A DNA stretch of 41,149 bases from an uncultured Victivallales bacterium (GTDB lineage Bacteria > Verrucomicrobiota > Kiritimatiellia > UBA8416 > CAYOBW01), in the NCBI GenBank assembly GCA_964402115.1, contig CAYOBW010000001.1, forward strand, positions 63,645 through 104,793, written 5' to 3'. Positions 7,501 through 27,314 of this stretch are shown in pieces. Each line of letters starts with the position of its first letter. The first letter of the stretch is position 1. The notes beneath the pieces are model-generated. The model saw only the letters and a program-made list of their open reading frames with translations, ran no database searches and was not told the origin of the DNA. A program made the translations under genes and the position numbers.

Positions 7501-10500
7501 AGACGACCTCGCCGTATGCGACCTACCTGGACAGCACGGTCGCAGAGGGCGCGGACTACTTCTACCGCATCTACGTGTTCGACCTCACCCATCCCGACCC
7601 CATCGGCGTTTCGCGCGCGGTTTACGCGAAGGCGCCGCGCGCGGGCGACGCCGCCGGCGCTGCCCCGTTCTTCACCTCCACCCCGCCGACGGGCGCGACG
7701 CTGGGGCGGACGTACGCCTACCAGGCGCGCGCCGTGGATCCCGGCGGCAGCGCGCTCGTGTACGAACTGCTGGCCGGACCCACCGGCATGGTGGTCAACG
7801 CCGCCGGCGGGTTCGTGACGCTGACGCCGACCGTGGCTCAACTGGGCCAGCACGACGTCTGGCTGCAGGCGCGCAATCCCGCCGGCCAGACCGCGCTGCA
7901 GGCCTACAAGCTGACAATCGACGCGACGGTGAACCAGCCGCCCGTGGCGGCGCTGCAGGGGCCGCGCACCGGCGTGCAGGGCGCGGCGCTGGCCTTCGCC
8001 TCGCTCGGCACGCAGGATCCTGACGGCGATGCGCTCGGCTATCTCTGGAGCTTCGGCGACGGGGCGACGGCGGCCACGCCCAACCCCGTGCATGTCTACC
8101 CGGCGGCCGGGCTGTACAGCGTGCAGCTCTTTGTCAACGATGGCCACGGCGGCACCGCCAGCGCCTCGCTGCTGGTCGGCATCACGCCGCCCAACCGCGC
8201 GCCGGTGGCTCTCGTCGATGGCGGGCCGGCCTTCGCCGTGCGCATGCGCCATCCCCTGGCGCTGAACGGCCGCCCGTCCTACGACTACGACGGCGATCCG
8301 CTGACTTTCGCCTGGAGCTGGGGCGATGGCGCGCCGGACGGCGCCGGCCTCGCCGCGAGCCACGCCTACGGCGCGCTGGGCACGTTCACCGGCCGCCTGG
8401 CCGTGACCGACGGCCGCGGCGGGCGCGGCGAGTACGCGTTCACCGTCGCGGTCTCCGCCTCCAACCGCTTCCCCGTCGCGGCACTTGACGTTCCGCAGCC
8501 GGGTACGAACGTCATGGACCGGTTCACCTTCGACGCGTCCGCCTCCACGGATCCTGACAACGATCCGCTGCTCTACTACTGGAACTTCGGCGACAACTCC
8601 GCGATCATGGGTCCCGTGGCCGCGCACTTCTACGCGCAGCCGGGCGATTACACCGTGCGCGTCGCCGTTGTGGACAACCACGCCGCGACGGGCATGGCGC
8701 TGCGCGTGGTCCACGTCAACGCGCCGCCCGTGTTCCAATCCACGCCGTCGCTCACCAACCGGCAGGGCGCCGCCTACACTTACCGGCCCGTGGTCACGGA
8801 CGCCGACGGCGACCCGCTCGCGTTCTCGCTGGCCACGGGGCCGGCGACGATGGGCCTGGAGAGCCCGACCAACGGCGTGCTGAACTGGACGACGAGCAAC
8901 GACGACGTTGGCGCCAACCGCGTCGCGCTGGTCGTTACCGACGGTCACGGCAGCGTGGTCACGCAGGCCTTCGTGGTCACCGTGGCGGATGTGAACGACC
9001 CGCCCGAGATCAGCTCGACCCCCGGCACCAATGCGACCGAGGAGGTGCTCTACACGTACCAGCTGCACGCCCGCGACGTGGACGACACGAACCTCCAGTT
9101 CAGTCTCGTGACCCGGCCGCCGAACATGGTGCTGAACCCGATCAGCGGGCTGCTGTGGTGGACGCCCGAGAACGTTCACACCGGCGCGAACCCGGTTGTC
9201 GTGACCGTGAGCGACCCGCGCGGCGGCGTGGCGACGCAGCGCTTCACGATCGTCGTGGCCGACGTGAACGATCCGCCCGTGATCACGACCACTCCGGTCG
9301 TCGCGGCGACGGAAGACACGCCTTACACGCATGACGTGGACGCGGCGGACCCGGACGATGCGGCCGGCACGCTGCGCTTTGCGCTGAACCTGGCCCCGCC
9401 GGGCATGGTCATCGACCATGTCACGGGCGTGATCGCCTGGACCCCGCTCGCGGCCTCGCCGGGCGAGCCGGTGCAGGTTGTCGCTTTCGACCCGCGCGGC
9501 GGGGTGGCGACCCAGGGCTTCACCGTGGTCGTGGCCAACGTGAACGATGCCCCGGTGATCGGCTCCCGGCCGGTCTACCAGGCGCTGGTCAACGTTGGCT
9601 ATCGCTACGACGTCAACGCCACGGACGAGGACGGTGACGCCCTCGCGTACGAGCTGGGCGCCGGCCCCGCGGGCCTGGCGATCGACCCGGCCAGCGGCCT
9701 CGTCACCTGGACCCCGGCGGCGGGGCAGGAGGGGACGGCCACCGTCACCGTCGTTGCGCGCGACGCCCCGGGCGCCACCGGCTCGCAGACGTACACGCTC
9801 GTGGTGCAGGCGGCCAACCGCGCTCCGTTCTTCACCAGCGTGGCGCCTGCCACGGCATCCGAGGACCGGCTCTACACGTACGACGCGAACGCCACCGACC
9901 CCGACGGCAACCCGCTGACGTACCAGCTCGCGGGCCTGCTGCCGGCGGACCTGACCTGCGACCCGGCCACGGGCCTCGTTCAGTGGACGCCGTCCGCCGC
10001 CTACAACGGGGACGTGGTGACCGTGCAGGTGTGGGCGGCCGATGCCTTCATCGGCACGAGCCAGACCTTTACCGTGACCGTGGCGCCCGTGAACGACGCG
10101 CCCGTCTTCACCTCCGCGCCCGTGACCAATGCCGAGGTGGGCATGGTGTACGGCTACACGGCGGAGGCCGTGGATGAAGAGGGCGACGCCATCGCGTACA
10201 GCCTGCCGACCGCTCCGGCCGGGCTCGCTCTGACCGCCGCCGGCGCGGGCGCGACAAACGTGCTGACCTGGCGGCCCGCGGCCGGGCAGGTCGGCGCGCG
10301 CGCGGTCGTCGTGCGGGCGCGCGATGCGGGCGGCGCCGTGACCGACCAGTCCTTCACCGTGCGGGTCGTGGACGGGCGGCACCCGCCCGTCGTGGCCGGC
10401 ATCGGCGACCAGGTCGTGCAGGATCCGAACGCCTTCCTGCAGGTCGCGCTCGATGACTTCGTGGCGGACCCCGACCACGCGGACGCCGAACTGGCGTGGA

Positions 10501-13500
10501 CCGTGCAGGGCCGGTCGCGGCTGACGGTGGCCATCACCAACCGCATCGCCACCATCGGCTACGCCCCCGGCACGCGCGTCACCGAGACGCTCACCTTCAC
10601 GGCCCGCGACCCCGACAACCTGACCGGCTTCGCGACGGCTACCTTCACCGTCGCGGAGCCATCGCAGGACAGCGTGCCGCCGGTGCTGTTCCTGGACATC
10701 CCCGAGGGCGGGGAGCGCAACACGCCCCTGGCCCTCGACGTTCTGGCCGAGGACAACGAGGGTGTGGCCAACGTGACGGTCAAGGTCGATGGCGTGGCGC
10801 GGCCCGTGCAGAACCTCGGCGGCGGCCGCTACCGGGTGATCTACACCACGCCCGCGGTCGGCTTGCACACCGTGCTGGCCACCGTGATCGACCGCGCCGG
10901 AAACGCCTTCAGCGACACGCGCACGACGCTGATCGTCGACCCGGCCGTGACAGCCGCCGGCCTGCAGGCGGCCATCACGGCGCCGGTCGAGGACGCGCTC
11001 CTGGGCGACGTGACCGAGGTGCAGGGCACGGCGCTCGGGCCGAACTTCGTCGACTACGTGCTGGAGTATGCGGAGAACGGCACGGCGGACTACGTGGAGT
11101 TCGCGCGCGGCGCGGCCCCGGTGGCCGACGGGCCGCTGGGCACGCTCGACCCGTCCACGCTGCCCGCCGGCGTTTACACGCTGCGGCTGACCGTGCGCAA
11201 CACCGGCGGCGCCAAGCGCAGCGCCAGCATCGTGGTGGAGCTGACCGGCAACGAGATCATCGGGCCGTTCGCCCTGCGCTTCAAGGACAAGACCCTGCAC
11301 GTGGGCGGCTTCCCGATCGGCATCGTGCGCACCTACGACAACCGCGCGCGCGGCGTGCCCGGCGACTTCGGCTACGGCTGGGACCTGGCCTTCTCCGACG
11401 TGAAGCTGGTGAGCCGCTACGTGCCGGGCGACCACTGGGTCATGGATACGGAGCGGGGCTTCTTCCCGGTCTACACGCTGCGGGCGACGAAACAGCAGAC
11501 GCTCACCGTGTACTTCGGCGACCGCGACAAGCACACCTTCCGCATGCAGCCGTCGCCGCGATCCTCGATCCTGTACCCGATCAGCTTCCTGGAAGGCATG
11601 GAGTATGACGCGGTGAGCGGGGCGAAGGGCAGCATCGCTCCGGACAGCGGCGCCTCCTACTTCGACGGCGGCGTGATCCTGGACGCGGGGTTCGAGATCT
11701 TCGACCCGCAGGTCTACCACTACACGGCGGCCAACGGCTACCGCTACACCTTCCGCAAGCCGCCGTCGGGCACCCTGCGGTACGAGCTCGAGCGCATCAC
11801 CGATCCCGATGGCAACAGCCTGACCATGTCCGATGCCGGCATCGTGCGCTCCGACGGCACGACGCTGCGCTTCGTGCGCGACGCGGCCAACCGCGTCATG
11901 CGCATTGAGGATCCGCTCGGCGCCACCATCCACTACGAGTACAGCGTGCGCGGCGACCTCGCGGCGGTGGTGGACGAGCTCGGCAACCGCACGACGTTCA
12001 TCTACAACCGCGACCACAACCTGCGGGAAATCCGCGACCCGCTCAACCGGCCGCTCCAGAAGCAGGAGTTCGACACGAACGGGCGCCTGGTGGCCCTCAC
12101 CGACGCCAACGGCAGCCGGCTGACGCTCGAGCACGACCTGGACGCCAACACGGAGATCCTCCGCGACCGGCGCGGCAACGCGAAGATCTTCCAGTACAAC
12201 GACGCCGGCTACGTGCTCAAGCAGACCGAGTTCCCGACCGTGCACGGCGTGGTCATGCCCGTCACGACCACGAACGAGTACGCCGCCGAGAACCGGCTTG
12301 CGGCCGACAACCTCGGCGGGCGGCGGCGCGCGTACACGTACGACGCCACCGGCAAGCTGCTGAGCGAGATCGTCGACGTGGGCGGGCTCAACCTCGCCAC
12401 CCGCTACACCTACTCGGCCGCCGGCAAGCTGGAGAGCGTGCTCGACGCCAACGGCCATGTGGCCACGAACCTCTACAACGCCAGCAGGCAGCGCACGCAG
12501 CGCGTGGACCGGGCCGGCGCCGTGACCACCTACACCTACGGCGCCCAGGGGCGGCGCGTGCGCGAGACGGACGCCCTCGGCAACTACACGGAGTACGACT
12601 ACGACGGGCGCAGCAACAAGATCCGCAGCGAGCGCTTCAGCGCCGACGGCGTGAGCCTGCGCAAGCAAACCTACACCTACGACGCCAACGGCAACAAGCT
12701 CACGGAGACCCTGCACCTGACCGTCGACGGCGTCGCGCAGCCGGTGACCACGAGCTACCGCCATGACGCGAAGGGCCGCGTGGTGGCCGTGACGGACGCG
12801 CTTGGGCACACCGCCAGCAATGTCTACGACAGCCTCGGGCAGGTGATCGAGACGGTGGACAAGCTCGGCGGGCGCACGCGCTACACCTACGACATGATGC
12901 GGCAGCTCGTGCGCACCGACCACCCGGACGGCACCTTCGAGACGCGCGCCTACGATCCGGACGGCAACGCCACGTCGCGCACGGACCGGGCGGGGGTGAC
13001 CCGGGTCTATGCCTACGATGCGGTCAAGCGCATCACGCAGGTCACGTCGCCCGGCGGCGCGGCGCGGCGCTTCGAGTACGATGTCTTCGGCAACCGCACG
13101 GCGGAGATCGACGAGTTCGGGCAGCGCACCGACTACGTCTTCGACAAGGCCGGCCGCCAGCTGGCCGTGCTGCTGCCGTCGGTCGTGGACGCCCGCAGCG
13201 GCGCAGCCGGGCGGCCGGTCATCGGGCACGCGTACGATCCCAACGGCAATCTCACGGCCCTGGTGGATGCGAACAGCAACCGCACGGCGTACGTTTTCGA
13301 CGCCGAGAACCGCCTGCTGGCGACGCGCCTCGCGGACGGGCACGTGCTGACCAACCGCTACGACGCGCTGGGCCGTCTCGTGGCCAAGAGCGATGCCGCG
13401 GGGAATACGGTGACGTACGCGTTCGACGCCCTCGACCGCGTCGTCTCCGTCACCCAGCCCGCCGTGGCCGGGCAGCCCGCGGCGGTGACCCGCTACGCGT

Positions 13501-15548
13501 ACGACGAGGCGGGCAACCTGCTCACCGCCACGGACGCGCGCGGCCGCGTGACGCAGTTCGCGTACGACCTGGCCGGCCGGCGCACGGCGCGCACCCTCCC
13601 GGGGGGGCAGCGCGAAACCTTCGCCTATGACGCTATGGGGCAGGTCGTGGCACACACCGACTTCAACGGGCGGCTCACGCGCTACAGCTTCGACGCGGGC
13701 GGCCGCCTGACGGGCAAGGATCTGCCGGCGGGTCCCGACGTGCAACTCAGCTACGACGCGGGCGGCCGCCTGCAGCGCGTGGTGGACGGCCTGGGTACGA
13801 CGTCCTACGGCTACGACGCGCTCGGCCGCACCGCCGCGGTGACGAACCCGACCGGGAGCACCGTCACGTACAGCTACGATGCGGCGGGCAATATCCTGAC
13901 CGTCGCGAGCGCCGGCGGCGCCACGGCCTACACGTACGACGCGCTCAAGCGCGTAACCGCCGTGCGTGACAGCCGCGGTCTGACCACCACCATGGGCTAC
14001 GATCCGGCCGGCAACCTGGTGAGGCAGGCGCTGCCCAACGGCGTGGGCATGGTGCGTTCCTTCAATACGCGCGACCAGCTCGTGGGCGTGGTCAACCGGC
14101 GCAGCGACAACACGCTCCTCAGCTCGTTCGCCTACACGCTCGACGCCAACGGGCTGCGCACCGGCGTCATGGAAGCGGACGGCTCGGCCGTGACGTATGT
14201 CTACGATGCCCGCTACCGGCTCACGTCCGAGACCCGCACGGGCGCGGGCGCCTACGTCACCACGTACGCGTACGACCTGGTGGGCAACCGTACCGCCGCC
14301 AGCCTGGGCGGGACGGCGGTGGCCTACACGTACGACGCGAACGACCGCCTGACCGGAACCGGCACGGAAACGTATTACTACGACGCCAGCGGCAACATGA
14401 CCGGCCGCACGGATGCCGCCGGCTTCACGGCGCTGGGCTACGACGAGGAGAACCGGCTGACGCGCGTCACGGCGCCGGGCGGCGCCGTCACCACCTACGC
14501 GTACGACCTCTACGGCAACCGCGTGCGCCGGACCGACGGCGGCGGCACGCGGGAGTTCGTCGTGGACCCGCGCAACCTCAGCGGCCAGGCGCAGGTCGTG
14601 GACGAGCTCGACGGCGCGGGCGGGGTCGTGACGCACTACACGCGGGGCGCCTCGCTGCTGGCCGAGGACGAGGGCGCCACCCGGCTCTATTACGTGGCCG
14701 ACGGCCAGGGCAGCACGCGGCAGCTCGTGAACGGCGCCCAGGCGGTGACCGACACGTTCCGCTACGATGGCTACGGGCGGCTGCTCGACCGCACCGGCGC
14801 GCACGACACGCCGTTCCAGTTCACGGGCGAGGCTTACGACCCGGCCGTGGGCGCGTACTACCTGCGCGCGCGCTACTACGACCCGCGCACCGGGCGCTTC
14901 CTCGGCATGGACCCGGACCTGGGCGGGCTCAAGGATCCGACCAGCCTGCACCGCTATCTCTACGCGCACAACAACCCCGTGAACCTGCTCGACCCGAGCG
15001 GCCGGTTCTCGCTGTGCGAGGTGAGTATCAGCATCAACATCCAGGCCTCGCTCCAGTCCGCCTACGTGAAGAGCGTGATCACGACGGGGCTGGACCTCGT
15101 CGAGATCATCTTCTGCATGCTCGAGCCGGCGTGGGATATGGTCTGGATGGGCCTCGACATGATCGTCAACGACGTGCCCGGCGGCGAGGCGATGTTCTCC
15201 GAGGGCAAGCGCCTGGAGGCCGGCGCGTTCCAGGCCATGCAGCAGCGGATCGCGGACCACTTCCAGGAACTGGCCGACGAACTGAATCCCGTGAAGATCG
15301 AGATCGAGAGCGACCTGCTGGATTACTACGAGCAGGCCAAGGAGGCCTGGGAATCCCTGCAGAACGGCGACCTGCCCATGCCGCCGCTGCCGGAGAAGAT
15401 CCAGAACATCCTCGACTTCAAGGACAAGGTCACCGAGTACTTGGGCGCCTTCACCGACGCGCTCGATGACGAGAAGAGCAACTGCGAAAGGTTCAAAGGC
15501 ATTTCCACGCTGGCCAAGGGCGCCCTGGAGTACCTGCCGGAATTCTAA
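1518..15548 (+). CDS. Giant (4676 aa) secreted multidomain surface protein: adhesin-like array fused to a complete Rhs/YD-repeat shell plus an unknown C-terminal domain
   Basis: RBS agagg upstream of ATG 1518. Signal peptide MKRCACGKWVLAAALAAGATAGQA. FN3-like (aa~100-190). FG-GAP/VCBS repeats (GDFDRDGIQDLV, DYDADGFLDFIVGSGDSGW, LGDFDEDGHLDVL, WDYNGDGHLDIV). Multiple PKD domains (WRFGDGKTG, WAFGDGKTG, WNFGDGTV, WSFGDGTP...). ConA-like segment. Alpha/alpha-toroid segment (GGGWQYGWNDQAADNSVSQWGAIGM). Repeated cadherin-like/putative-Ig modules (APVFTSAPVTNAEVGMVYGYTAEAVDEEGDAIAYSL). Rhs shell start (GIVRTYDNRARGVPGDFGYGWDL), dozens of YD repeats (YTYDANGNKLTE, YAYDAVKRIT...). Rhs core RARYYDPRTGRFLGMDPDLGG...NPVNLLDPSGRF, then a ~180 aa tail. 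The uninterrupted 14 kb frame in high-GC DNA is itself strong evidence. Confidence 0.93.
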   Translation: MKRCACGKWVLAAALAAGATAGQAATPAVGVLGQESDGTIKLRLQGGTNSVHAIQAGSNLVDWATILAVRPESTNGITFTDPESAKQPRRYYRVVEHKGLRDTTAPGWNGDLGLRFSRSGTNGLNLAWAGARDAIGVAAYRIYINGRPATTLLGNVHSLTLTGLDFTERQDIRIEAVDASGNVSGREALIYVPGDALLAATDDSGNLYVSAWQTNAFANLQVVANLGVMARGVTMGDFDRDGIQDLVSCYHTNWRLYPRFFRGRADGTYEPARELPSCAGGTWVAGMAADDYDADGFLDFIVGSGDSGWLGFYWGNGDGTFTVTEGQYAANGRAMDSGDVNEDGLPDFVRAEYGAGYLRCYLSRGDRTFAQTNLVGDVGDDPYGVALGDFDEDGHLDVLANSGGSGDAYLYKGYGNGLFSNGVNVASVDANDYAAWDAWDYNGDGHLDIVMTTYNNQNVYYYPGLGDGAFAARTVLPNRPGNRSLGIAAPLLAPRVDVRISPELPAVPLNRFLALAAAGGGVRPTDAFAWRFDDGSVLHGQIVSNRWATEGRRVVRLTHTNATGVASVRGTWITVTGLPPSANAGGPYTFGEDKASQLRWTAELDGGASTDDFPLVAFIWNFGDGTVATNGTNTVVTHTWTNTGPWAVTLTVVDRARQLGTNLTTVTFVPGAPPVAAISAPSQVDEAVASQGRWTVPLSAAASTDDNGIWKYEWRFGDGKTGSGRDVTAAFAATNHYTVELTVTDHAGQTNRTTHALAVADNDSPVARIRAAAVVDETAARNGVWNANFSAEDSTDDFGLWKYDWAFGDGKTGAGRTVGTTYGAANAYTVTLTVTDHAGQRHSSTFNVRIKANYYPMPMIWGPTRLDEAVATNGLWFGAWDGSISSDDTGISRHDWRFGDGDTASGSRVTHQYRRAGVYPLSLTVTDHGNQAMTVTQRVTVAANEPPVARLTASPLTPEGAQPVDFSAAASTDDFGIMRYRWLLPPRVFAFDGNAVDHLQWVATDGVTQGDRLAVAGVSTWDTRYVLARDTLLRRGSVFECRVDTAAGSGTHAMVGFKNLNAASGHYNQFPCALYFNNGTLEVYEYGSGRGSFGGYTRGTSYDVRIETKPDAGARYYLRASGTGDAFQLVYDSPNQADTAFSFGMVVYAGTFGLDDVRVTEVYRDARALRAPVWPAGTVTLEVVDHAMQTARTSVAINSFTGAPPAAVISGPAGGATGAELAFDGSGSSDDHGVASYMWSFGDGTPAAYTALAPHFFGAAGVYEVTLAVRDFAGQASVATQRVTIVGEPLVVAVPWRIVGDVELPHETWTNRTITLKAVAENVATPFDWRWDFGDGSPAVTGTAATVAQAFGLEARHAYTGSEGTPFTATITITTTNGLSSSDRYSVLIRPKTLKAEMNVAIDEGLWFMHKSQVRNFANPARPEGYWEFRGYGYFLENVTASAVQGYAINGHQEGGDAARDPYVNTVRRAVTFLLNRLRSVSIATQTYGDPDSNRNGIGLVASDDRGPYNVGPIIDALVANGDPERIAQTGAANVRGRYYRDLVADMVDAYAWAQSDQTWGGGWQYGWNDQAADNSVSQWGAIGMLAAEHYWRLEAPRWAKERNLVWLENTRGASGWAYQSRGDSLVLTPSALIQATWAGLTTGSGYWRQGEDYIARNWATIMSWYDMYAEFGIAKAMRLAQPQPVTRFAATGKDWFLDPVDGMARLTIDRQGGDGSWLASSRSYLGDRMMSSAWSILILSSSLFQQGPVAVVHVRPNPCKIAWPVRFDASGSYHQHPSFRITEYRWDFDQADGVNFDTPDAVGPIVQHPFGSNRTYTVSLQVRDNNTPPAYDVALLTVAINDLPHPPVADAGGPYVAAVGEALHLDGTGSFDIDVSDGDAIRAYDWDVDFVQPLDFADGVTGSQPHVLQGFAAAGVHNVGLRVTDSTASVYPNQQSDLSSDAFATVTVYDELVTDLRARPKRSKIQLTWTQVGVRVDVHRSTVSASTGFVKIGETTSPYATYLDSTVAEGADYFYRIYVFDLTHPDPIGVSRAVYAKAPRAGDAAGAAPFFTSTPPTGATLGRTYAYQARAVDPGGSALVYELLAGPTGMVVNAAGGFVTLTPTVAQLGQHDVWLQARNPAGQTALQAYKLTIDATVNQPPVAALQGPRTGVQGAALAFASLGTQDPDGDALGYLWSFGDGATAATPNPVHVYPAAGLYSVQLFVNDGHGGTASASLLVGITPPNRAPVALVDGGPAFAVRMRHPLALNGRPSYDYDGDPLTFAWSWGDGAPDGAGLAASHAYGALGTFTGRLAVTDGRGGRGEYAFTVAVSASNRFPVAALDVPQPGTNVMDRFTFDASASTDPDNDPLLYYWNFGDNSAIMGPVAAHFYAQPGDYTVRVAVVDNHAATGMALRVVHVNAPPVFQSTPSLTNRQGAAYTYRPVVTDADGDPLAFSLATGPATMGLESPTNGVLNWTTSNDDVGANRVALVVTDGHGSVVTQAFVVTVADVNDPPEISSTPGTNATEEVLYTYQLHARDVDDTNLQFSLVTRPPNMVLNPISGLLWWTPENVHTGANPVVVTVSDPRGGVATQRFTIVVADVNDPPVITTTPVVAATEDTPYTHDVDAADPDDAAGTLRFALNLAPPGMVIDHVTGVIAWTPLAASPGEPVQVVAFDPRGGVATQGFTVVVANVNDAPVIGSRPVYQALVNVGYRYDVNATDEDGDALAYELGAGPAGLAIDPASGLVTWTPAAGQEGTATVTVVARDAPGATGSQTYTLVVQAANRAPFFTSVAPATASEDRLYTYDANATDPDGNPLTYQLAGLLPADLTCDPATGLVQWTPSAAYNGDVVTVQVWAADAFIGTSQTFTVTVAPVNDAPVFTSAPVTNAEVGMVYGYTAEAVDEEGDAIAYSLPTAPAGLALTAAGAGATNVLTWRPAAGQVGARAVVVRARDAGGAVTDQSFTVRVVDGRHPPVVAGIGDQVVQDPNAFLQVALDDFVADPDHADAELAWTVQGRSRLTVAITNRIATIGYAPGTRVTETLTFTARDPDNLTGFATATFTVAEPSQDSVPPVLFLDIPEGGERNTPLALDVLAEDNEGVANVTVKVDGVARPVQNLGGGRYRVIYTTPAVGLHTVLATVIDRAGNAFSDTRTTLIVDPAVTAAGLQAAITAPVEDALLGDVTEVQGTALGPNFVDYVLEYAENGTADYVEFARGAAPVADGPLGTLDPSTLPAGVYTLRLTVRNTGGAKRSASIVVELTGNEIIGPFALRFKDKTLHVGGFPIGIVRTYDNRARGVPGDFGYGWDLAFSDVKLVSRYVPGDHWVMDTERGFFPVYTLRATKQQTLTVYFGDRDKHTFRMQPSPRSSILYPISFLEGMEYDAVSGAKGSIAPDSGASYFDGGVILDAGFEIFDPQVYHYTAANGYRYTFRKPPSGTLRYELERITDPDGNSLTMSDAGIVRSDGTTLRFVRDAANRVMRIEDPLGATIHYEYSVRGDLAAVVDELGNRTTFIYNRDHNLREIRDPLNRPLQKQEFDTNGRLVALTDANGSRLTLEHDLDANTEILRDRRGNAKIFQYNDAGYVLKQTEFPTVHGVVMPVTTTNEYAAENRLAADNLGGRRRAYTYDATGKLLSEIVDVGGLNLATRYTYSAAGKLESVLDANGHVATNLYNASRQRTQRVDRAGAVTTYTYGAQGRRVRETDALGNYTEYDYDGRSNKIRSERFSADGVSLRKQTYTYDANGNKLTETLHLTVDGVAQPVTTSYRHDAKGRVVAVTDALGHTASNVYDSLGQVIETVDKLGGRTRYTYDMMRQLVRTDHPDGTFETRAYDPDGNATSRTDRAGVTRVYAYDAVKRITQVTSPGGAARRFEYDVFGNRTAEIDEFGQRTDYVFDKAGRQLAVLLPSVVDARSGAAGRPVIGHAYDPNGNLTALVDANSNRTAYVFDAENRLLATRLADGHVLTNRYDALGRLVAKSDAAGNTVTYAFDALDRVVSVTQPAVAGQPAAVTRYAYDEAGNLLTATDARGRVTQFAYDLAGRRTARTLPGGQRETFAYDAMGQVVAHTDFNGRLTRYSFDAGGRLTGKDLPAGPDVQLSYDAGGRLQRVVDGLGTTSYGYDALGRTAAVTNPTGSTVTYSYDAAGNILTVASAGGATAYTYDALKRVTAVRDSRGLTTTMGYDPAGNLVRQALPNGVGMVRSFNTRDQLVGVVNRRSDNTLLSSFAYTLDANGLRTGVMEADGSAVTYVYDARYRLTSETRTGAGAYVTTYAYDLVGNRTAASLGGTAVAYTYDANDRLTGTGTETYYYDASGNMTGRTDAAGFTALGYDEENRLTRVTAPGGAVTTYAYDLYGNRVRRTDGGGTREFVVDPRNLSGQAQVVDELDGAGGVVTHYTRGASLLAEDEGATRLYYVADGQGSTRQLVNGAQAVTDTFRYDGYGRLLDRTGAHDTPFQFTGEAYDPAVGAYYLRARYYDPRTGRFLGMDPDLGGLKDPTSLHRYLYAHNNPVNLLDPSGRFSLCEVSISINIQASLQSAYVKSVITTGLDLVEIIFCMLEPAWDMVWMGLDMIVNDVPGGEAMFSEGKRLEAGAFQAMQQRIADHFQELADELNPVKIEIESDLLDYYEQAKEAWESLQNGDLPMPPLPEKIQNILDFKDKVTEYLGAFTDALDDEKSNCERFKGISTLAKGALEYLPEF

Positions 15549-15560
15549 GGTGAAGGGGCG

Positions 15561-18500
15561 TCACCAGGGTTGGACGGCGCGAACCCGGAAGCAGGCGCTG
15601 GTGCGCCACGCGGGGGGCAGGCGCAGCCACGCCGACTCCAGCGCCGGGTCGGTGTGCGGCGTGAGCGTTGGCGTCGGCGTGGTGAGGGACTGCCAGAGCG
15701 GCAGCCGCGGCGCATACTCCGTGGTGTAAACCAGCGCGTGCAGGCCGGCGGCACGGCGGACGTAGCCGAATTCGACCGCTTCTCCCGCTTGCTGGATCCG
15801 CAGGCGCGCGCCGCGGGGGTCGGCGATCAACGGCTGGCTGCCGAAGGCGTACTCGGCCAGGTTCACGACCCCGTCGCCGTCCGGATCGTCCTGCCACGCC
15901 GCAAGGGTGGCCCCGAAGTGGCGGCGCTGCCAGGCCCCGGCGCAGGGTTCGGGTTGCGCGGCGGCCAGCGCGGCGATTTCGGCGGGGGCCAGGGCGCGCG
16001 GGTAGATGCGCACCTCGTCGAGCACCCCGCTGAAATAGCGGTTCTGCACGTCGCTGCCAACCTTGACCGGAGCCGTCGAGGTCGTATGGATCGCCTGCGG
16101 ATCCTGCAGGCTGAGCACGGTCTCGCGCGCGCCGTCCACGAAGAGCAGCACGTTGGTCACATCGGCGGAGGGCTGGTTGGTGAAGGTGCAGGCGATGTGG
16201 TGCCACTGCCCGTCGTTGACCAGCCGGCTGCCCTGGACCCAGCCTTGCGTAACCTCCAGCCGCGCGTTGCCGTCCTTGATGAGGAACGTCCATTTGTCGC
16301 CGGCCGTGTTGGGGCCCCAGGCGATGACGGGCATCTGCCCCGTGCCGGTGGTCTGGATCCAGGCCGCGCAGGTACGCGCGTCGGCGCCGCGGATGCCGAG
16401 GAAACCCGTCAGGCTGACGTAGTCATTCGTGCCGTCGAACCGGAGCCCGTAGCCGCAGCGGCCCGGAACCCATGCTGCGGCTTCATCCGCCACATTGACC
16501 AGGGCCGCAGGCCACCCGCCGCCGGCCTCGCGCGTGGTCAGTCCGCTGTTCTGGTTGAGCGGGTACCAGAACTCGCCGTTATGGAAATAGACCGCAACGG
16601 TGACCGTGGCCGTCGCGCTGAAGGCGCTGTCGGTGACGCTGTAGGTGAAGCGATCTTCGCCGAGAAACCCGGGGTTGGGCGTATAGAGGATGCGGCCATC
16701 CGCCTCCACTGCGCTGCCGGCGGCAGGGTGGCCGACGGAGGCGAGCGCGAGGGCGGACGGCAGGTCGTCGTCCGTGTCGTTGGCGAGCACGTCGATGTAC
16801 ACGGCGCTGTCCTGGGGCGTGGCGGCGGCATCGGCCGCGGGCTGCGGGGGGGCGTTCGCCGCGGCTCCGTCGCGCCGGAAGGCCGTATCCGGGATGGCCT
16901 GCCGGGCGAACCCCGGCCCGCTCCACTGCAGCGCGAGCGCGGGCGTACCGCCCGTACCCCGTGCGTAGTAAAGCCGGAACGGGTGCAGGCCGGCGGTCAA
17001 GGTGGCGCTGGCGGAGCGCTCGGTTCCGCCCGTGTAGGCGAAGTCCGCGTCGAGCACGGTGGCCTCGTGCAGGCGCAGCAGCGCCCGGGCGTCGGTGGTG
17101 AGGAAGAAGGTGTACGAGCCGGTGGCCGGCACGCGCAGGTAGCCGGAGAAGAGGAGTCCGATGTCGGTGTCGCGCGGCCGGATGCCGAGGTCGGGTCGCG
17201 CCACGGTGCCGGTGCTCGAAGGGGGCAGGGCGGTGAGTTCCGGCACCCAGGGGAAGGCCGCGCTGCAGGCGCGCCAGACCACGCCGCTGACCGTTGCCAC
17301 GGAGGCGAGCGCCGGCACGGGTTCGGCGTCGTAGGGCCGCGGCGCTGCGCCGTCAGGGCGGCGCAGGCGCAAGACGCGGTCCTTCAGCTGCAGTTGCAGC
17401 GCGGCGTTGGCGGACGCCAGGTTGACCGTCTCCCGCGGGTCGTTGACGACGTCGTAGATCTCGAAGTCATCCGCGTGCGACTGGATGTCGTAGCGCACGC
17501 CCAGGTAGTCGCCGTGGCGGATGGCCTGCATCTGGTTGCGCGCGCGTCCGCGCTTCGCGGCCTGGAACTCCGCGTACGCAGGGGTCGTGCCGCTGTAGGC
17601 ATACTCGACGTAGACCGTGGGCGTGCGCTGCGTCCCGCTGCCGGTCAGCGTGGGCGCCAGCGACACGCCGTCGCTGCGGGCGGGTGCCGGCACGCCGGCC
17701 AGGTCGGCGAAGGTGGGCAGCCAGTCAGGGAAGCTGCAGGGCAGGTTGCTGACCCGGTTGGTCCCGATGTTGCCAGGCCAGCACGCCAGCGCGCCGACGC
17801 GGATGCCGCCCTCCCAGCAGTCGCGCTTCATGCCGTCGAAGGGGCCGAAGCTGTTGAAGAAATCCGGCCTGTAGTTGACCGTGAAGTTCAGGTAGTCCTC
17901 GTTGCTCGGCCCGTTGTCCGAGGTGAAGACGATGAGCGTGTTGTCGGCGATGCCGAGATCGCCCAGCAGCTTCCGCAGGTCGCCGACGGCGTCGTCGATG
18001 CGCCGCACGCTGGTGGCGTAGCGCTTGTAGACGGCCGGCCAGGCCACTTCGGCGGTGTCGCCGTTGCCGTCGTCGTCATAGGTGGCGCCGCTGTAGTCGG
18101 GGTGCACGTAGCTGTCCACGGCGCCGGTGGCGGTGTTGATCATCTGCCCGGGCGTGCCCAGCCACTGCAGCCCGCCGCCCAGCCCGCCGCCCGCGGGATA
18201 GGCCATGGTCGGCAGTTCCAGCACGGCGTGGGGCGTGTCGTAGGCGAGAAACAGGAAGAAGGGGCGGGCGGGGTCGTCCGCGTGCCGCTCGACGATCCAC
18301 TGCTTGGCGCGCGCCGTGAACAGGTCGGTGGTGTAGCACGCGTCGAGGTCGGCGGAGACTTCGCGGCCGTTGTCCCAGACCTCCTTCGCGCCGCCGTAGG
18401 TGCCCTCCTTGGGGTAATGCTCGTGGCCGTCGCCGTGGCGCACGTAGCCGAAGTAGTCGTCGAACCCGCAGCGGGTGGGATAGCTGGACCACGTCGCGGC

Positions 18501-18947
18501 GTTGGCGCCGGCGCCCTGCAGGCCCCACTTGCCGATGCAGCCGGTGGCGTAGCCGGCCTGCCGGAGCACGGTGGCGACGGTGTGGTTGGTCTCGAGCGCC
18601 TTGTCGAACTGGTTGTCGCGCACGTTGGCGTGCCCCTGGTGCACGCCGAGCAGGAACGAGGCGCGCGAGGGGGCGCACACCGGCGCGGGGCTGTAGTGCT
18701 GGCGGAGCTGCAGGCCTTGCGCCGCAAGCGTGTCGAGCCGCGGCGTCAGATGGCACGGCTCGCGGCGGTCGTTGGCGGCGCGGCGCTGGTTCTGGAAGAA
18801 GACGCCGAGGTCGCCGTAGCCCAGGTCGTCGCAGAGGATGAAGACGATGTTCGGCCGCGCCGCCGCGGCGGCGTCCGCGCCCCCGGCCAACGCCAGCAGG
18901 AGGGGCAGCAGGGAAAGGGTCCTGTGCACGGCGGTGTTCCCACTCAC
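15561..18947 (-). CDS. Multidomain sulfatase (1128 aa): arylsulfatase-type catalytic domain + PA14-like + cadherin-like/Big + LamG/ConA-like lectin + dockerin-like C-terminal motif
   Basis: Signal peptide MSGNTAVHRTLSLLPLLLALAGGADA. Sulfatase N-terminus PNIVFILCDDLGYGDLG and formylglycine motif PVCAPSRASFLLG. PA14-like GYLRVPATGSYTFFLTTDARALLRL...LHPFRLYYARG...LQWSGPGFARQAIP. LamG-like block (RFDGTNDYVSL...WHHIACTF...LLFVDG...DEVRIYPRAL). DPDGDGVVNLAEYAFG Ca-binding dockerin/TSP3-like motif near the C-terminus. Confidence 0.9.
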   Translation of the reverse strand: MSGNTAVHRTLSLLPLLLALAGGADAAAAARPNIVFILCDDLGYGDLGVFFQNQRRAANDRREPCHLTPRLDTLAAQGLQLRQHYSPAPVCAPSRASFLLGVHQGHANVRDNQFDKALETNHTVATVLRQAGYATGCIGKWGLQGAGANAATWSSYPTRCGFDDYFGYVRHGDGHEHYPKEGTYGGAKEVWDNGREVSADLDACYTTDLFTARAKQWIVERHADDPARPFFLFLAYDTPHAVLELPTMAYPAGGGLGGGLQWLGTPGQMINTATGAVDSYVHPDYSGATYDDDGNGDTAEVAWPAVYKRYATSVRRIDDAVGDLRKLLGDLGIADNTLIVFTSDNGPSNEDYLNFTVNYRPDFFNSFGPFDGMKRDCWEGGIRVGALACWPGNIGTNRVSNLPCSFPDWLPTFADLAGVPAPARSDGVSLAPTLTGSGTQRTPTVYVEYAYSGTTPAYAEFQAAKRGRARNQMQAIRHGDYLGVRYDIQSHADDFEIYDVVNDPRETVNLASANAALQLQLKDRVLRLRRPDGAAPRPYDAEPVPALASVATVSGVVWRACSAAFPWVPELTALPPSSTGTVARPDLGIRPRDTDIGLLFSGYLRVPATGSYTFFLTTDARALLRLHEATVLDADFAYTGGTERSASATLTAGLHPFRLYYARGTGGTPALALQWSGPGFARQAIPDTAFRRDGAAANAPPQPAADAAATPQDSAVYIDVLANDTDDDLPSALALASVGHPAAGSAVEADGRILYTPNPGFLGEDRFTYSVTDSAFSATATVTVAVYFHNGEFWYPLNQNSGLTTREAGGGWPAALVNVADEAAAWVPGRCGYGLRFDGTNDYVSLTGFLGIRGADARTCAAWIQTTGTGQMPVIAWGPNTAGDKWTFLIKDGNARLEVTQGWVQGSRLVNDGQWHHIACTFTNQPSADVTNVLLFVDGARETVLSLQDPQAIHTTSTAPVKVGSDVQNRYFSGVLDEVRIYPRALAPAEIAALAAAQPEPCAGAWQRRHFGATLAAWQDDPDGDGVVNLAEYAFGSQPLIADPRGARLRIQQAGEAVEFGYVRRAAGLHALVYTTEYAPRLPLWQSLTTPTPTLTPHTDPALESAWLRLPPAWRTSACFRVRAVQPW

Positions 18948-19052
18948 GCGATACTACTCCTTCCGGCTCGCGCGCTCGCAGCCCGCGCCTTGTCACGTTG
19001 CGCCGCACCGTCGCGCCGGCCAGCCCCTGGGGGCGCCGTCTCCGCCGCCCGG

Positions 19053-21440
19053 CTATTTTGTCTGGAGGCGCAGGACGGTCACCGAGTACGCCGGGAAAGT
19101 GTGGCGAAAGGCGGGGCCCGCGTTGGCGATGGTCTCCTCCCGCGGCGCCACCTTCTGCGGCTCGGCGAAGGAGTTCTCGTCGTCCGGCGAGGCTGAAGTC
19201 AGCACCACGGCCCGGGCCTTGCGGGCGACGCTGGTCGCGCCGCCCAGCTCGATTTCGGTTTCCGCCGGCGCGCCGGCCGCATTCACGACTTTCAAGATCA
19301 CCTCGCCGGTGGCCTGGCTGAGGCCGGCGACGGCATACATGCTCCTGAGGCCTTGGCCGGCGAGGTCGTGGATGAGCTTGCCGTCGAGATAGCAGCGGAC
19401 CCTGCCGCCCGCGAGTTCGACCTTGATGTCGTACCAGCGGTTGACTTCGATGGCGCCCGGGACGCGTGCGCAGTCCAGGCCGCGCATTTCGACCGCGTGG
19501 GCGCTGTTGCCCCAGCCGCCGATGTTCCACCAGGACTTGCTCTTCTCGTCCGGGGCGGCGAAGGTGACGAGAAACCCTTCCGCGCCGCCGAGCTTGCGGG
19601 CCTTGAGCGAGAGGGTGTAGTCCTTCCAATCCTTCTTGCCGGCGTAGGCTCGCGGATCCTGCCCCTTGCCGCTCTGGCGCAGGACGTCGCCATCCCACTT
19701 CCAGTCGCCGCCGGCGAACTTCCAGCCTTTGGTGCCTTCAAACAGCACCTTGCCGTCCTGCGTGACCCGGATGTCCTTGAATTCCGCCTGCGTGCGCCAG
19801 GTGCCGACGCCGACCAGGCCGGCGCGCGTTTCGGTCGATTCCATCGGCGGGGCGGTGACGGTCGCGGGCAGCACCACGTCGCCGCGGTTGCGGCCAAACA
19901 GCGTCTGGACCAGCCAAGAGGGCGTCGCGTAGCTGCGCGCGGCATCGAAGAGAATGGCATTCGGGTTCCAGTGCTTCCAGCCGACGTGCTCGAACAGCGG
20001 CGCGTACGAACACAGGGTCACCACGTCGCCGTTGCGCTCGAGCCCGGTCATGAACGCCGCCTCGCCCAGCGCCGCCTTGAGGTTGCCCCGGCCCGCGCCG
20101 CGCGTCACCGCGTACTCGCCGACGTAGACCTTGTGCGCGGCGCGGTCGTAGGTGTCGTACTTGTCGGCGTTGCGCATGAAGAACTCCGGCGTGTTGTAGT
20201 AGTGCTCGTCGACGATCTCCGATGGGCGGGCGGTGGACGGCACGTAGTCGAGGATCAGGTGCATCTCGGGGTAGCGCTGCTTGATGGCGTCGTGAAACAG
20301 CACGTAGCGCTCCTGGTAGGCCTCGCCGCGGTTCTCGTTGCCGATCTCCAGGTACTTCAGGTTGAACGGCGCCGGGTGGCCGGCCGCGGCGCGGCGGGCG
20401 CCCCACGGCGAGTCGGCCGGCCCGTTGCAGTACTCGATCGCGTCCAAGGCGTCCTGCACGAACTCGCCCATCCGGTCGAGCGGCACGTTCTCCTTGTGCG
20501 ACATGCCGCAGTTGATGACGAACAGCGGCTCGGCGTGCAGCGTCTCGCACAGCAGCAGGTACTCGTGGAAGCCGAGCCCGTCGTTCGAGTAGTAGCCCCA
20601 GCGGTTCCACAGCCCCGGCCGCTCCGCCGCGTCGCCAATCGTGGTCTTCCAGCGGTAGGCGAAGCGCATCTCGTCGCCCTCGACCCAGCAGCCCCCGGGG
20701 AAGCGCACGAAGGCCGGTTGCATGTCGGCCAGGTGCTGCAACAGGTCGGCGCGGAAAAGCTGTCCCTGCGGCATCAGCGATACCATGTCCAGCCAGACCG
20801 TGCCCGCCGTCGCGAGGACCAGCCGCGCGTTCGGCTCCGTGGCCGACGCCTTCAACTCCGCCTGGTAGCGCTTCCAGTCGGCCCCGATGCCGGTCACCTC
20901 GTGCGCGGCCAGCACGCTGCCGTCGGGCCGCTCCAGCGTGACCTGCACCGGCCCCTCGCCGCGCGCAGACAGGGAGAGCTGGTACACTTGCCGCTTCTGC
21001 ACGGCGATGCCGTTGGTCATCTCGCGGACGCCTTTCTCGAAGTCCGGCAGCCATTGCGCCGGATCCACGCCCTGGCGGTAGGGCGCGCCCTTGAAGCCGT
21101 AGCTGGCCGCGCTGGCGCCCGCTTCGAGGCGCAGGCTGGTGGGGTTGCGCGCATGCAGCGGCCTGCTCTTGTCGAGGGCCAGCGGGCCCTCGCCCTTGAC
21201 GCGCACCCAACCCAGCGGCGCCGCCGCATCCTCGAAGGAGCGGTTCTGCACCATTTCGGCATAGAGGCCGCCGTCGCCGGCGCGGTTGATCTCCTCGAAG
21301 AAGATCCCGTAGAGCAGGGGACTGACCCGCACCCCCGGCTTGTCGAACTGAACACGGATGGAGGCTGGCGCGGCAAACGCCAGGCCTGTCAGGCTCATCA
21401 GGCAGACCAGCGCCAACGCGCTGCGGGAACGCTGCTTCAT
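19053..21440 (-). CDS. GH51-like alpha-L-arabinofuranosidase (795 aa) with an inserted DUF1080/LamG-like jelly-roll domain
   Basis: Signal peptide MKQRSRSALALVCLMSLTGLAFA. N-terminal LYGIFFEEINRAGDGGLYAEMVQNRSFE resembles Bacteroidetes-type GH51 enzymes. Catalytic acid/base-type motif LEIGNEN. C-terminal beta-sandwich (GEVILKVVN...FPAYSVTVLRL) is interrupted at aa~540-695 by a DUF1080-like block (TKGWKFAGGDWKWDGDVLRQSG...GFLVTF...WYDIKVELAGGRVRCYLDGKLI). Confidence 0.75.
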   Translation of the reverse strand: MKQRSRSALALVCLMSLTGLAFAAPASIRVQFDKPGVRVSPLLYGIFFEEINRAGDGGLYAEMVQNRSFEDAAAPLGWVRVKGEGPLALDKSRPLHARNPTSLRLEAGASAASYGFKGAPYRQGVDPAQWLPDFEKGVREMTNGIAVQKRQVYQLSLSARGEGPVQVTLERPDGSVLAAHEVTGIGADWKRYQAELKASATEPNARLVLATAGTVWLDMVSLMPQGQLFRADLLQHLADMQPAFVRFPGGCWVEGDEMRFAYRWKTTIGDAAERPGLWNRWGYYSNDGLGFHEYLLLCETLHAEPLFVINCGMSHKENVPLDRMGEFVQDALDAIEYCNGPADSPWGARRAAAGHPAPFNLKYLEIGNENRGEAYQERYVLFHDAIKQRYPEMHLILDYVPSTARPSEIVDEHYYNTPEFFMRNADKYDTYDRAAHKVYVGEYAVTRGAGRGNLKAALGEAAFMTGLERNGDVVTLCSYAPLFEHVGWKHWNPNAILFDAARSYATPSWLVQTLFGRNRGDVVLPATVTAPPMESTETRAGLVGVGTWRTQAEFKDIRVTQDGKVLFEGTKGWKFAGGDWKWDGDVLRQSGKGQDPRAYAGKKDWKDYTLSLKARKLGGAEGFLVTFAAPDEKSKSWWNIGGWGNSAHAVEMRGLDCARVPGAIEVNRWYDIKVELAGGRVRCYLDGKLIHDLAGQGLRSMYAVAGLSQATGEVILKVVNAAGAPAETEIELGGATSVARKARAVVLTSASPDDENSFAEPQKVAPREETIANAGPAFRHTFPAYSVTVLRLQTK

Positions 21441-21550
21441 CGGAGTACTCCTGGGTTATGCGAACCGGTCAATGCACCTGGATGTCCAAATGTGAAATGC
21501 TTCTGTGAAACGGGGCCTTGGTCGTGTAGGTTGTGAGGGGGACGTCGTTG

Positions 21551-23032: not shown

Positions 23033-23039
23033 TTGCGTG

Positions 23040-23393
23040 CTACTTGACTGTCGGGACCGTGTAGTCGGTCACGGGCGTGCTGTAGTTCGTAAGCGGAATG
23101 CCGTAGTTCTGCTGGGCTGTCCGCTTGTACCGCTCGTGCAGTTCCCGGATCATGCTCTGGCGTTCCTCGAACCACCTGGGATCGCCGATGCGCTTGATCA
23201 CGCCCGTGTGGCTGACGGTATGGCTGCGCGGGCGATAGCCCCCGCGACCGCGCCGGCCGGAGCCGCCCCTGCCACGGCCGCGCGCACTGCGCCTGCCGCC
23301 CTTCCCCTTGGCCTGCGCGGGGGGCGCCAGCGCGAACACAATGGCGCCCACCATGGCGGTCAGGAGAGACCTCAACAGCTGTCTTCTCTTCAC
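23040..23393 (-). CDS. Small secreted Arg/Gly-rich protein (117 aa), hypothetical
   Basis: MKRRQLLRSLLTAMVGAIVFALAPPAQA signal peptide followed by KGKGGRRSARGRGRGGSGRRGRGGYRPR low-complexity basic tract. Begins 8 nt downstream of the sulfatase gene on the same strand, so plausibly co-transcribed. Confidence 0.5.
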   Translation of the reverse strand: MKRRQLLRSLLTAMVGAIVFALAPPAQAKGKGGRRSARGRGRGGSGRRGRGGYRPRSHTVSHTGVIKRIGDPRWFEERQSMIRELHERYKRTAQQNYGIPLTNYSTPVTDYTVPTVK

Positions 23394-23404
23394 GACGACC
23401 TCCT

Positions 23405-23917
23405 CTACGGCTTCTTCTCGAGCCTGTCGTACTGCGTGTCTATCTTGTTATCGAGGTCCGCTATCTCGCGCTGCTTGGCTTCGATGTCGGCCGGTTTGCC
23501 AGCCTTCCCCTCCAGGCGGACGAGGTCCATCTCCGCCAGGACCTTCATATCCTCCAAGGCAAAGATCTGCAGGCACGTTGCGGCTTTGTCGGCGGACGCC
23601 CGCTGCCGATAGTCCTCGTAATCGCGGTACAGGTACACGCGGTCCGAAACAAGGTCGGCAATCTCCGCGCGGAGGTCCTCCTGCTCGGCGGCTTTCGCAC
23701 GCGACAACTTGTCGCCCAGCGCCGTGATCAGCAGCAGAGTGGCGGGACAGCGCTTTTCCATGAACGACTCCAAGGCGCCCGCGTCGAGGCCCTCAAGCCA
23801 CTTCAACTCCTCGCGAACATCCTGCCTGATCGCCTCGAGCCCTTCGCGGACGAAGGGGCCACGGGGAACCAATGGCGCTGCTGCCGCCGCCACGGCGAGA
23901 TTCATCCTTGTCAGCAT
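23405..23917 (-). CDS. Hypothetical protein (~171 aa; helical, charged), possible N-terminal signal/anchor
   Basis: ATG at 23917 (MLTRMNLAVAAAAAPLVP...) with AAGGTGG Shine-Dalgarno 7 nt upstream. The track ORF starts further upstream at a GTG (23941). No recognisable family. Directly upstream (11 nt) of the RG-rich small gene. Confidence 0.5.
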   Translation of the reverse strand: MLTRMNLAVAAAAAPLVPRGPFVREGLEAIRQDVREELKWLEGLDAGALESFMEKRCPATLLLITALGDKLSRAKAAEQEDLRAEIADLVSDRVYLYRDYEDYRQRASADKAATCLQIFALEDMKVLAEMDLVRLEGKAGKPADIEAKQREIADLDNKIDTQYDRLEKKP

Positions 23918-24094
23918 GGCCAGTCCACCTTTCGGTTGCACGATGCTGCGTCGTACTCTGCTCGCTTGCGGACGCCACGCAGCCTTGCACAGATGAGGTT
24001 GTCGTGGTCATTCCAAGCAACGTGTGTATCATTATGGCACCGAGCCGACTGTGTCAACGCACTCGTGTCAGGGAGTTCGGAGAGGAGACATCGG

Positions 24095-25927: not shown

Positions 25928-25991
25928 AAGGCCGCGCCTCCGTTTCTGCCGCCCACCTCGCGATACGCTTCGGCGCCGCAAGGGCGGAGCG

Positions 25992-27268: not shown

Positions 27269-27314
27269 TGAGTGTGCTCACCTTAGTCCTTGCGGACCGG
27301 TGTGCGCCGTACGA

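Follow-up and report, generated by a model that had tools for sequence, protein, structure and literature searches.

A rare, conserved helical domain family at the C terminus of Rhs proteins: candidate non-catalytic cargo without adjacent immunity genes

The C-terminal tail of a giant Rhs (YD-repeat) protein, encoded in a 41,149-nucleotide (nt) stretch of DNA from an uncultured Victivallales bacterium (contig CAYOBW010000001.1, positions 63,645 to 104,793 of the forward strand; hereafter “the window”), is a member of a rare, conserved family of ~180-amino-acid (aa), all-alpha domains that sit at the C terminus of Rhs proteins and that had not been curated before; that is, the tail is not an orphan. 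We propose, with moderate confidence, that it is a non-catalytic and non-self-toxic Rhs cargo. One giant open reading frame (ORF; 1518-15548, + strand) dominates the locus in this ~70% GC window, and its 4676-aa product, a singleton cluster within the protein collection, combines 11 PKD_4 stretches and 14 RHS_repeat stretches (PF05593, E=1.7e-108) with FG-GAP, He_PIG, Big_9 and cadherin-like domains (Pfam). The N terminus, MKRCACGKWVLAAALAAGATAGQA, is by eye a probable Sec signal peptide. The shell of the protein consists of multiple RHS/YD repeats of the expected extent (about 1100-1300 aa), with a conserved N-terminal plug region homologous to those of proteins P0003 and P0004, and it closes with an Rhs-associated core (TIGR03696, NCBIfam Rhs_assc_core; E=6e-20) whose last residue is the G of DPSG (15000-15002). 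The core has both the PxxxxDPxG end and the upstream RxRxYDPxxGRFxxxD motif, and on its repeats and core the scaffold reads as a bona fide Rhs cocoon protein. The tail that follows DPSGRF is 179 aa long (15009-15545, with a TAA stop codon at 15546-15548). An earlier, sequence-only reading of this DNA had described a ~180-aa domain in this position, and the domain is indeed there; the span that it gave, 15005-15560, begins 1 base before the Phe codon and takes in the intergenic spacer.

The sequence-only reading also called the tail unrecognisable, and against curated libraries that description stands: neither Pfam, NCBIfam nor PHROGs gave a significant match to the tail, and a profile of the family recovered no specific match among Protein Data Bank (PDB) chain sequences. 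Two matches below threshold, to Pfam DUF6985 (E=0.016) and NCBIfam sll0565 (E=0.13), are absent from other members and were set aside, as were marginal PDB profile matches to designed helical proteins or repeats and to apolipoprotein A-I, which reflect helical composition rather than homology. The description does not hold, however, once relatives are considered. When 1.84 billion cluster representatives were searched exhaustively with phmmer, 22 proteins came up at E<=0.001 (best homologue at E=1.9e-22 and 36% identity), and conservation in orthologues, which the sequence-only reading had named as its own test, is thus borne out. Wherever N-terminal context is present, the homologous region is the extreme C terminus of an Rhs protein and comes directly after DP(S/T)G-x-F. 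Additional members were contributed by a word-indexed search with the family profile (P0023, the only protein found in this way), by a search with the shell (P0025 and P0039), and by metagenome and genome scans (L005, L006 and L007, the last of these from a Desulfobacterales metagenome-assembled genome, or MAG); the back-translated patterns that yielded these three loci came from a closer alignment subset (A2), the full alignment (A1) being too diverse. With the single tail sequence as the query, neither a word-indexed search across 5.8 billion proteins nor a genome-contig scan gave any match, and the plasmid collection contained no match for two family members. Family members reside in DNA of 38-74% GC, and those with a known source come from environmental metagenomes or MAGs (a sediment metagenome and the Desulfobacterales MAG). 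Some have Cys-rich MopE-like N termini, which we take to be associated with Myxococcota. Scans of all members revealed no Pfam family that they have in common. Three divergent relatives (P0061, P0102 and P0138) carry the N-terminal hairpin half of the domain only, within their C-terminal about 100-190 residues; their C-terminal halves are helical but different.

Within the family, tail and shell diverge together and the tail shows purifying selection, a pattern unlike that of swapped toxin cassettes. Over 55 pairs of members, which are not independent of one another, tail identity correlates with identity in the final 600 residues of the shell at Pearson r=0.72; shell and tail identities are 66% and 58%, 61% and 54.5%, and 53% and 57% in example pairs. 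In one close pair, L005 and L006 (synonymous divergence, dS, about 0.25-0.27), the ratio of nonsynonymous to synonymous substitution rates (dN/dS) is 0.076 for the tail and 0.158 for the shell. Although otherwise about 90% identical, these two loci lose colinearity in codons 1-1000 of the Rhs gene and, beyond codon about 1000, in the giant partner gene downstream (see below), which points to indels or repeat-number changes in Ig-like regions; shell and tail stay colinear. At greater depth in the shell clade, the tail replacement typical of Rhs proteins returns. The 120 top-scoring shell relatives (35-50% identity) carry many different tails, including NucA/NucB DNase, Tox-REase, WHH/colicin-DNase, lysozyme, peptidase and HINT domains, and shells that are 39-45% identical carry unrelated tails, known toxin domains among them. 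In about 97 of the 120, Pfam recognises nothing but the Rhs repeats, so most tails of the clade lack annotation. At 179 aa, the window tail is close to the clade median of 189 aa.

The tail is also a genuine coding sequence. Its in-frame GC content at third codon positions (GC3) is 0.933, against a gene mean of 0.93. Could it nevertheless be an artefact, either read-through into non-coding DNA or an extension of the Rhs gene created by a frameshift? No other 537-nt window of the ORF has a total GC as low as the 0.616 of the tail, which would fit such an artefact, but that value arises from a composition rich in Glu, Asp, Lys, Ile and Leu. The other reading frames have GC3 values of 0.31-0.77, homologues at E-values down to 1.9e-22 place the domain in the same position every time, and the dN/dS of the close pair is that of a selected protein; the artefact is refuted, and we put its probability at virtually nil. 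Recent horizontal acquisition of the tail was rejected in the same way, given the native GC3 and the amino acid origin of the low total GC.

The conserved positions of the family show no catalytic signature. In an alignment of 24 tail-family members, the columns that are at least 70% conserved hold F, L, S, I, Y, T, N, A, G or P, plus two Cys, and there is no conserved D, E, H, K or R position. AlphaFold2 with the family alignment yielded a model of five helices with a mean predicted local distance difference test (pLDDT) score of 76.5; a model from the single sequence reached a pLDDT of just 48 and was discarded. The first two helices form a long hairpin around a PGG turn, with pLDDT above 90 over tail residues about 30-80, and this is where most of the conserved columns lie, while the half made of H3-H5 is more variable in sequence and length across the family. 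Foldseek comparison of the model with PDB and BFVD returned nothing at E<=0.001, only generic helical matches, and no enzyme fold was found there. The chain ends in a family motif, (I/L/M)-P-x-F-COOH, in which the Pro is 83% and the Phe 75% conserved. Both cysteines, Cys36 and Cys159 in tail numbering, are invariant in 24 of 24 members and are probably disulfide partners. We prefer a disulfide to a catalytic thiol because of how the Cys vary in the divergent relatives, where the first site is CxxC in P0061 and P0102 and P0138 lacks any Cys, and because of the putative signal peptide.

Upstream of the tail, the elements for self-cleavage appear to be in place. The protease half-motif R-x-R...GRF...D is intact in 20 of 20 family members and lies 31 residues before the predicted P1 residue with constant spacing; DP(S/T)G is intact in the same 20, and cleavage is on this basis presumably retained in the family. 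Conservation across the family reaches 96-100% at the D, P and G of this site and at the Phe in position +2. By analogy with the canonical DPxGL↓x, we predict autoproteolysis at DPSGR↓F. The site differs from the usual DPxGL/W in that the family has a variable P1 (K/R/E/L/N/Q) followed by a nearly invariant Phe. What comes after the site is not peculiar to the family: in the window protein the first 12-15 residues after DPxG are FSLCEVSISINI, and many unrelated tails in the shell clade start with the same pattern, x-F-(S/T)-L-x-E-(V/I)-S (seen in the first 30 residues after DPxG of tails P0026-P0141), including the NucA/NucB DNase tail of P0063. Some clade leaders contain SISISI runs. This clade-wide leader may be a common post-cleavage or translocation element.

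The leader also bears on whether the tail is a membrane protein. The acidic character noted in the sequence-only reading is confirmed by a net charge of -20 (family range, -22 to +10, mostly negative). The ~30-aa hydrophobic stretch described in the same place is there in part: the best 19-residue Kyte-Doolittle window reaches only 1.64 and holds 3 charged residues, weaker than the description implied, and part of the stretch is the clade-wide leader. Half of 78 non-family tails have a transmembrane-grade segment (hydropathy 1.6 or more, at most one charge) within 80 residues of the leader; the tail family has an amphipathic bundle helix in place of this transmembrane-like segment of the clade. 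No member has a transmembrane-grade segment (median of the best windows, 1.19, with 0-4 and mostly 1-4 charged residues inside), and a transmembrane-anchor reading of the tail was rejected on hydropathy.

Can the domain be a pore former all the same? The closest functional analogue is the C-terminal toxin of Pseudomonas aeruginosa Tse5 (Tse5-CT), a 149-aa non-enzymatic, predicted helical pore former that is released by the Rhs protease and held in the cocoon (PMC10684867). In an analogous scenario for our family, the amphipathic helices would enter a target membrane after release and dissipate its potential, and immunity would be unneeded, the target lipids or receptors being absent from kin, or would be encoded elsewhere. 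The predicted all-helical amphipathic fold with its long hairpin would suit this, as would the precedent of an encapsulated pore former of similar size (149 versus 179 aa); H1 of the window tail is the most hydrophobic in the family, and the profile matches apolipoprotein A-I weakly, on composition (E about 0.1), alongside insignificant Foldseek matches to the alpha-pore-forming toxins AhlB and SmhB (E>=3). However, Tse5-CT is an integral-membrane toxin of a PAAR-bearing type VI secretion system (T6SS) effector with a cognate immunity protein, Tsi5 (PMC10684867), whereas the window tail is acidic, lacks transmembrane-grade segments and has no linked immunity gene. No Tse5 chain appeared among the PDB sequences searched with the family profile at E up to 10, the two sequences not having been compared pairwise, and a disulfide-locked bundle would be atypical of toxins that insert spontaneously. 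We therefore regard pore formation as rather unlikely, and the membrane-inserting or pore/anchor module offered as an example by the sequence-only reading is unsupported.

If the tail were toxic to its producer, an immunity gene would be expected next to it. The sequence-only reading found none, and this holds in the window and in about 10 homologous loci. In the window, the tail gene stops at 15548 and a convergent sulfatase gene stops at 15561, as that reading had it, with a 12-bp gap in which a consensus scan detected no terminator-like site. A hidden gene was also ruled out: candidate overlapping immunity ORFs at 15466-15729 (+), 15014-15469 (+) and 15493-16293 (-) were rejected on GC3 (0.31-0.77). 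Across the roughly 11 family loci, and leaving aside a gene in L003, no short, tightly coupled, same-strand gene lies 3' of the tail gene. In five loci (L001, L002, L005, L006 and L010), a giant secreted gene starts 14-105 bp downstream of the Rhs-tail gene; elsewhere the tail gene is followed by SDR, RidA and enoyl-CoA hydratase genes (L004), a convergent glutamine synthetase gene (L007), a convergent gene after 21 bp (the contig of P0018), small convergent genes after 790 bp (L008) or, in L009, no called gene within the remaining 489 bp. An all-against-all comparison of flanking ORFs of 50-420 aa uncovered no small ORF family common to the loci; the cross-matches that arose were only shadow frames of the giant downstream gene and were discarded. 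Nor did tblastn detect a second Rhs core, a tail copy or an orphan cassette in the 41-kb window, which answers within that range the search for paralogous or orphan cassettes that had been suggested. Two enzymatic tails of the same shell clade, taken as controls, show the canonical arrangement, each with a same-strand gene downstream: an SMI1_KNR4 gene that overlaps the gene for P0063 (NucA/NucB DNase tail), and a gene for an LRR protein at a distance of 121 bp from that for P0092 (GIY-YIG tail).

Another reading makes the tail a classical antibacterial polymorphic toxin whose enzymatic class is unrecognised and whose immunity gene is unlinked, lying elsewhere on the chromosome. The same slot in the shell clade does hold DNase, REase, WHH, lysozyme and peptidase tails, a length of 179 aa is typical of the clade, and the part of the genome inspected amounts to 41 kb of a 104.8-kb contig. 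Yet unlinked immunity would be required in all of the roughly 11 loci, when both enzymatic-tail controls have a downstream same-strand gene. In addition, the tail has no conserved acidic, basic or His residue and no enzyme fold, it co-diverges with the shell instead of being swapped, and the window has no orphan cassette. Together these observations leave the classical toxin a slim chance. The branch of the sequence-only reading in which the C-terminal domain is not a self-toxic effector is favoured by the lack both of a conserved catalytic-type residue and of adjacent immunity, although the membrane or pore module given there as its example is not.

The observations outlined above are consistent with the following model. 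The signal peptide that the sequence suggests at the N terminus would export the 4676-aa precursor, and the aspartyl protease of the Rhs core, which is intact, would by homology cut DPSGR↓F. As seen in solved Rhs proteins, the 20-kDa tail would then be kept in the YD-repeat cocoon, here of roughly 1250 aa, as a predicted helical-hairpin bundle that the Cys36-Cys159 disulfide probably stabilises. We posit that the cargo acts by binding a protein, a surface or a lipid outside the cytoplasm of the producer, not by catalysis, and that it would be harmless to the producer and its kin, so that an immunity gene would be unnecessary; this harmlessness is our proposed explanation for why no member has an immunity gene next to it. 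The FG-GAP/PKD/Ig part may serve adhesion or targeting, as an N-terminal fusion in the window protein and as a separate giant gene downstream in five other loci. Does the cargo ever reach a foreign target, for instance a prey cell or a eukaryotic grazer, or does it remain in the cocoon? We lean slightly toward release because both the cleavage motif and the clade-wide leader are retained.

Several considerations weigh against this proposal. The tail occupies the slot, and bears the leader, of bona fide toxins, and a toxic role is therefore the prior expectation. Binding instead of catalysis is an argument from the absence of conserved polar residues in about 24 sequences, and the two invariant Cys, rather than forming a disulfide, could belong to a catalytic or metal site. 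L003 encodes a 258-aa protein without a Pfam match after a 454-bp gap, the sole conceivable immunity candidate in the set. The enzymatic-tail controls comprise two loci only, a small number; several of the family contigs are short; and the source DNA inspected is the 41-kb window.

A different outcome of the same data is that nothing is delivered at all. Here the cocoon would have become a structural or adhesive module of a giant surface protein, comparable to the YD shell of teneurins, and the tail a permanent filler or plug that stabilises the shell. The co-divergence of shell and tail, purifying selection that is stronger on the tail than on the shell, conservation of the tail across genomes of 38-74% GC and the lack of an immunity gene in any locus would all follow naturally, and so would the adhesin-like domains, the match of PF25023 (TEN_YD-shell) to homologues, and a neighbourhood of housekeeping and polysaccharide-degradation genes that does not look like a conflict island. 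Against this reading stand the autoproteolysis motif, strictly kept in 20 of 20 members, and a leader in common with real toxins. The conserved free C terminus, (I/L)PxF, suggests recognition by something, and cargo is largely disordered in solved Rhs cocoons, so a filler needs no conserved fold (PMC10684867). We give a resident cargo a low but appreciable probability. Possible, if unlikely, is a functional shift away from toxin delivery, in which a non-toxic helical cargo that co-evolves with its shell and needs no immunity, plus the giant FG-GAP/PKD surface protein, would work in adhesion, matrix assembly or contact signalling.

Compared with known systems, the window protein shares most with the Rhs/YD-repeat polymorphic toxins, both WapA-like Sec-exported proteins and T6SS Rhs effectors: the same RHS repeats, the PxxxxDPxG core end and the RxR...GRF...D motif, and the same cargo slot with a tail of about 180 aa; shell relatives at 39-45% identity bear known toxin domains. 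It differs from them in a tail that appears non-catalytic and is conserved, co-diverging with its shell and without adjacent immunity. Of the hallmarks of toxin-plus-immunity systems, the tail family lacks the adjacent same-strand immunity gene, and the tail lacks a recognisable toxin domain or conserved catalytic residues. T6SS Rhs effectors have an N-terminal PAAR or prePAAR domain and/or VgrG, chaperone and T6SS genes next to them; Pfam found no PAAR, VgrG or T6SS genes or domains in the giant protein or its window neighbours, and the N terminus is Sec-signal-like instead.

There are precedents for toxin-position domains without catalysis or without immunity. Zhang et al. (2012) described non-catalytic toxin domains and immunity-less polymorphic-toxin-like proteins (Ntox43/RhsT, latrotoxin-CTD, W-TIP and Ntox38), the immunity-less proteins being read as aimed at eukaryotes, that is, at non-kin (PMC3482391). 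Our family resembles these domains in occupying the toxin position with no enzymatic residues and/or no neighbouring immunity gene. It differs in that Pfam scans of all members showed no sequence relationship to them and in that its members of known source come from environmental samples, not from known host-associated or intracellular bacteria. With these precedents, Tse5-CT (PMC10684867) and the roughly 97 of 120 shell relatives that have no other Pfam domain, the view in the sequence-only reading that either a non-self-toxic tail or immunity encoded elsewhere would be unusual was overstated.

Teneurin YD shells and TcB-TcC have the same YD-repeat cocoon and a large extracellular multidomain context, which here includes FG-GAP repeats. 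Teneurins carry a Tox-GHH domain outside the shell and are not known to undergo C-terminal autoproteolysis, whereas the protease motif is intact in the window protein family. As for Tc toxins, no SpvB, TcdB or TcA-type domains occur in the giant protein or in the conserved downstream partner, and no TcA partner was found; the SpvB/TcdB N-terminal regions and the TcA partner that define TcB-TcC are thus missing.

The giant partner gene merits a description of its own. Its products range from more than 1800 to 3132 aa and have a signal peptide and an N-terminal domain with the motif DASTLRLDYNFLTDE; the L002 partner also has He_PIG, FG-GAP, PKD, LamG-like and Big_13 domains. The partners in L001, L002, L005 and L006 are orthologues that share 52-56% identity along some 1960 aa, in genomes of 38-56% GC, those of L005 and L006 being 88% identical, and the giant gene of L010 appears, from shared shadow-frame matches only, to be orthologous as well. 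The partners also align with part of the window protein, aa 331-1245, showing 32-37% identity across stretches of 420-700 aa, which hints that a partner-like part has been fused N-terminally there.

Elsewhere in the giant protein, aa about 1440-1750 (window about 5835-6760) form a stretch of ~300 aa between PKD domains without a Pfam match, which by eye is alpha-helical, unlike the Ig-like repeats around it. Upstream, an open frame of 499 codons at 3-1502 (+) runs off the window start and ends 16 bp before the start of the giant gene (1518); it has no Pfam match, and its GC3 of 0.82 is somewhat below that of neighbouring genes. Downstream, 15561-25927 and 36340-39063 are dense in polysaccharide-degradation genes, including three sulfatases, a rhamnogalacturonan lyase of family 11 that carries FG-GAP repeats, and an alpha-L-arabinofuranosidase whose insert is 3-keto-disaccharide-hydrolase-like; other window neighbours are housekeeping genes. 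GC content falls to 0.63-0.64 at 23000-27800 and to 0.55-0.62 at 39000-41149, the rest of the window being at about 70%. ORFs at 39.3-40.8 kb have no Pfam match, and scans of the whole window for tRNAs and Rfam families returned nothing. Coordinates of the features are collected in Table 1.

Table 1. Features of the tail locus in window coordinates, with the giant partner gene in coordinates of its own loci
Feature	Position	Strand	Basis or remark
Giant gene, product 4676 aa	1518..15548	+	ORF list and translation; GC3 0.93
Rhs/YD-repeat shell cassette, aa 3251-4497	11268..15008	+	From plug region FALRFKDKTL...GDFGYGW to DPSGRF
RARYYDPRTGRFLGMD, upstream half of Rhs-core aspartyl-protease motif	14865..14912	+	Inside TIGR03696 match
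DPSGRF; Rhs core ends with DPSG (14991-15002)	14991..15008	+	TIGR03696 end
Leader FSLCEVSISINIQAS, polar and hydrophobic residues alternating	15006..15050	+	Low confidence in AlphaFold2 model
Helical hairpin: H1 (tail residues 4-53), PGG turn (15177-15185), H2 (59-92)	15018..15284	+	AlphaFold2 model; conserved core
Cys36 (tail numbering), invariant	15114..15116	+	24/24 members
Acidic C-terminal helices H3-H5 (tail residues 103-117, 129-152, 158-173)	15315..15527	+	AlphaFold2 model
Cys159, invariant	15483..15485	+	24/24 members
C-terminal LPEF and stop codon	15534..15548	+	Family motif (I/L/M)-P-x-F-COOH
Spacer, 12 bp, between convergent stop codons	15549..15560	.	No terminator-like site; no coding ORF across, by GC3
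Convergent sulfatase, 1128 aa: Sulfatase (E=8.5e-47), SGSH_C, PA14, Big_9, LamG	15561..18947	-	Pfam; context only
Giant downstream partner gene	L001:7575-13561, L002:10760-16704, L005:6606-12546, L006:6606-12546, L010:5027-9922

Rhs proteins are treated almost by definition as polymorphic-toxin containers paired with immunity genes. The impact of the present case is limited by the precedents for immunity-less and non-catalytic domains, by the fact that most metagenomic Rhs tails are unannotated and by a function that is inferred. The domain is nonetheless small (20 kDa) and comes with clear predictions for its cleavage site, its disulfide and its toxicity. If our proposal is true, a non-catalytic, immunity-free cargo kept by purifying selection across phyla would mean that the Rhs cocoon is also used beyond kin-level warfare, either for an immunity-independent effector against non-kin targets or in a non-toxic role. 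Were the tail instead the product of a functional shift away from toxin delivery, it would be a bacterial counterpart of the use that teneurins make of the same scaffold.

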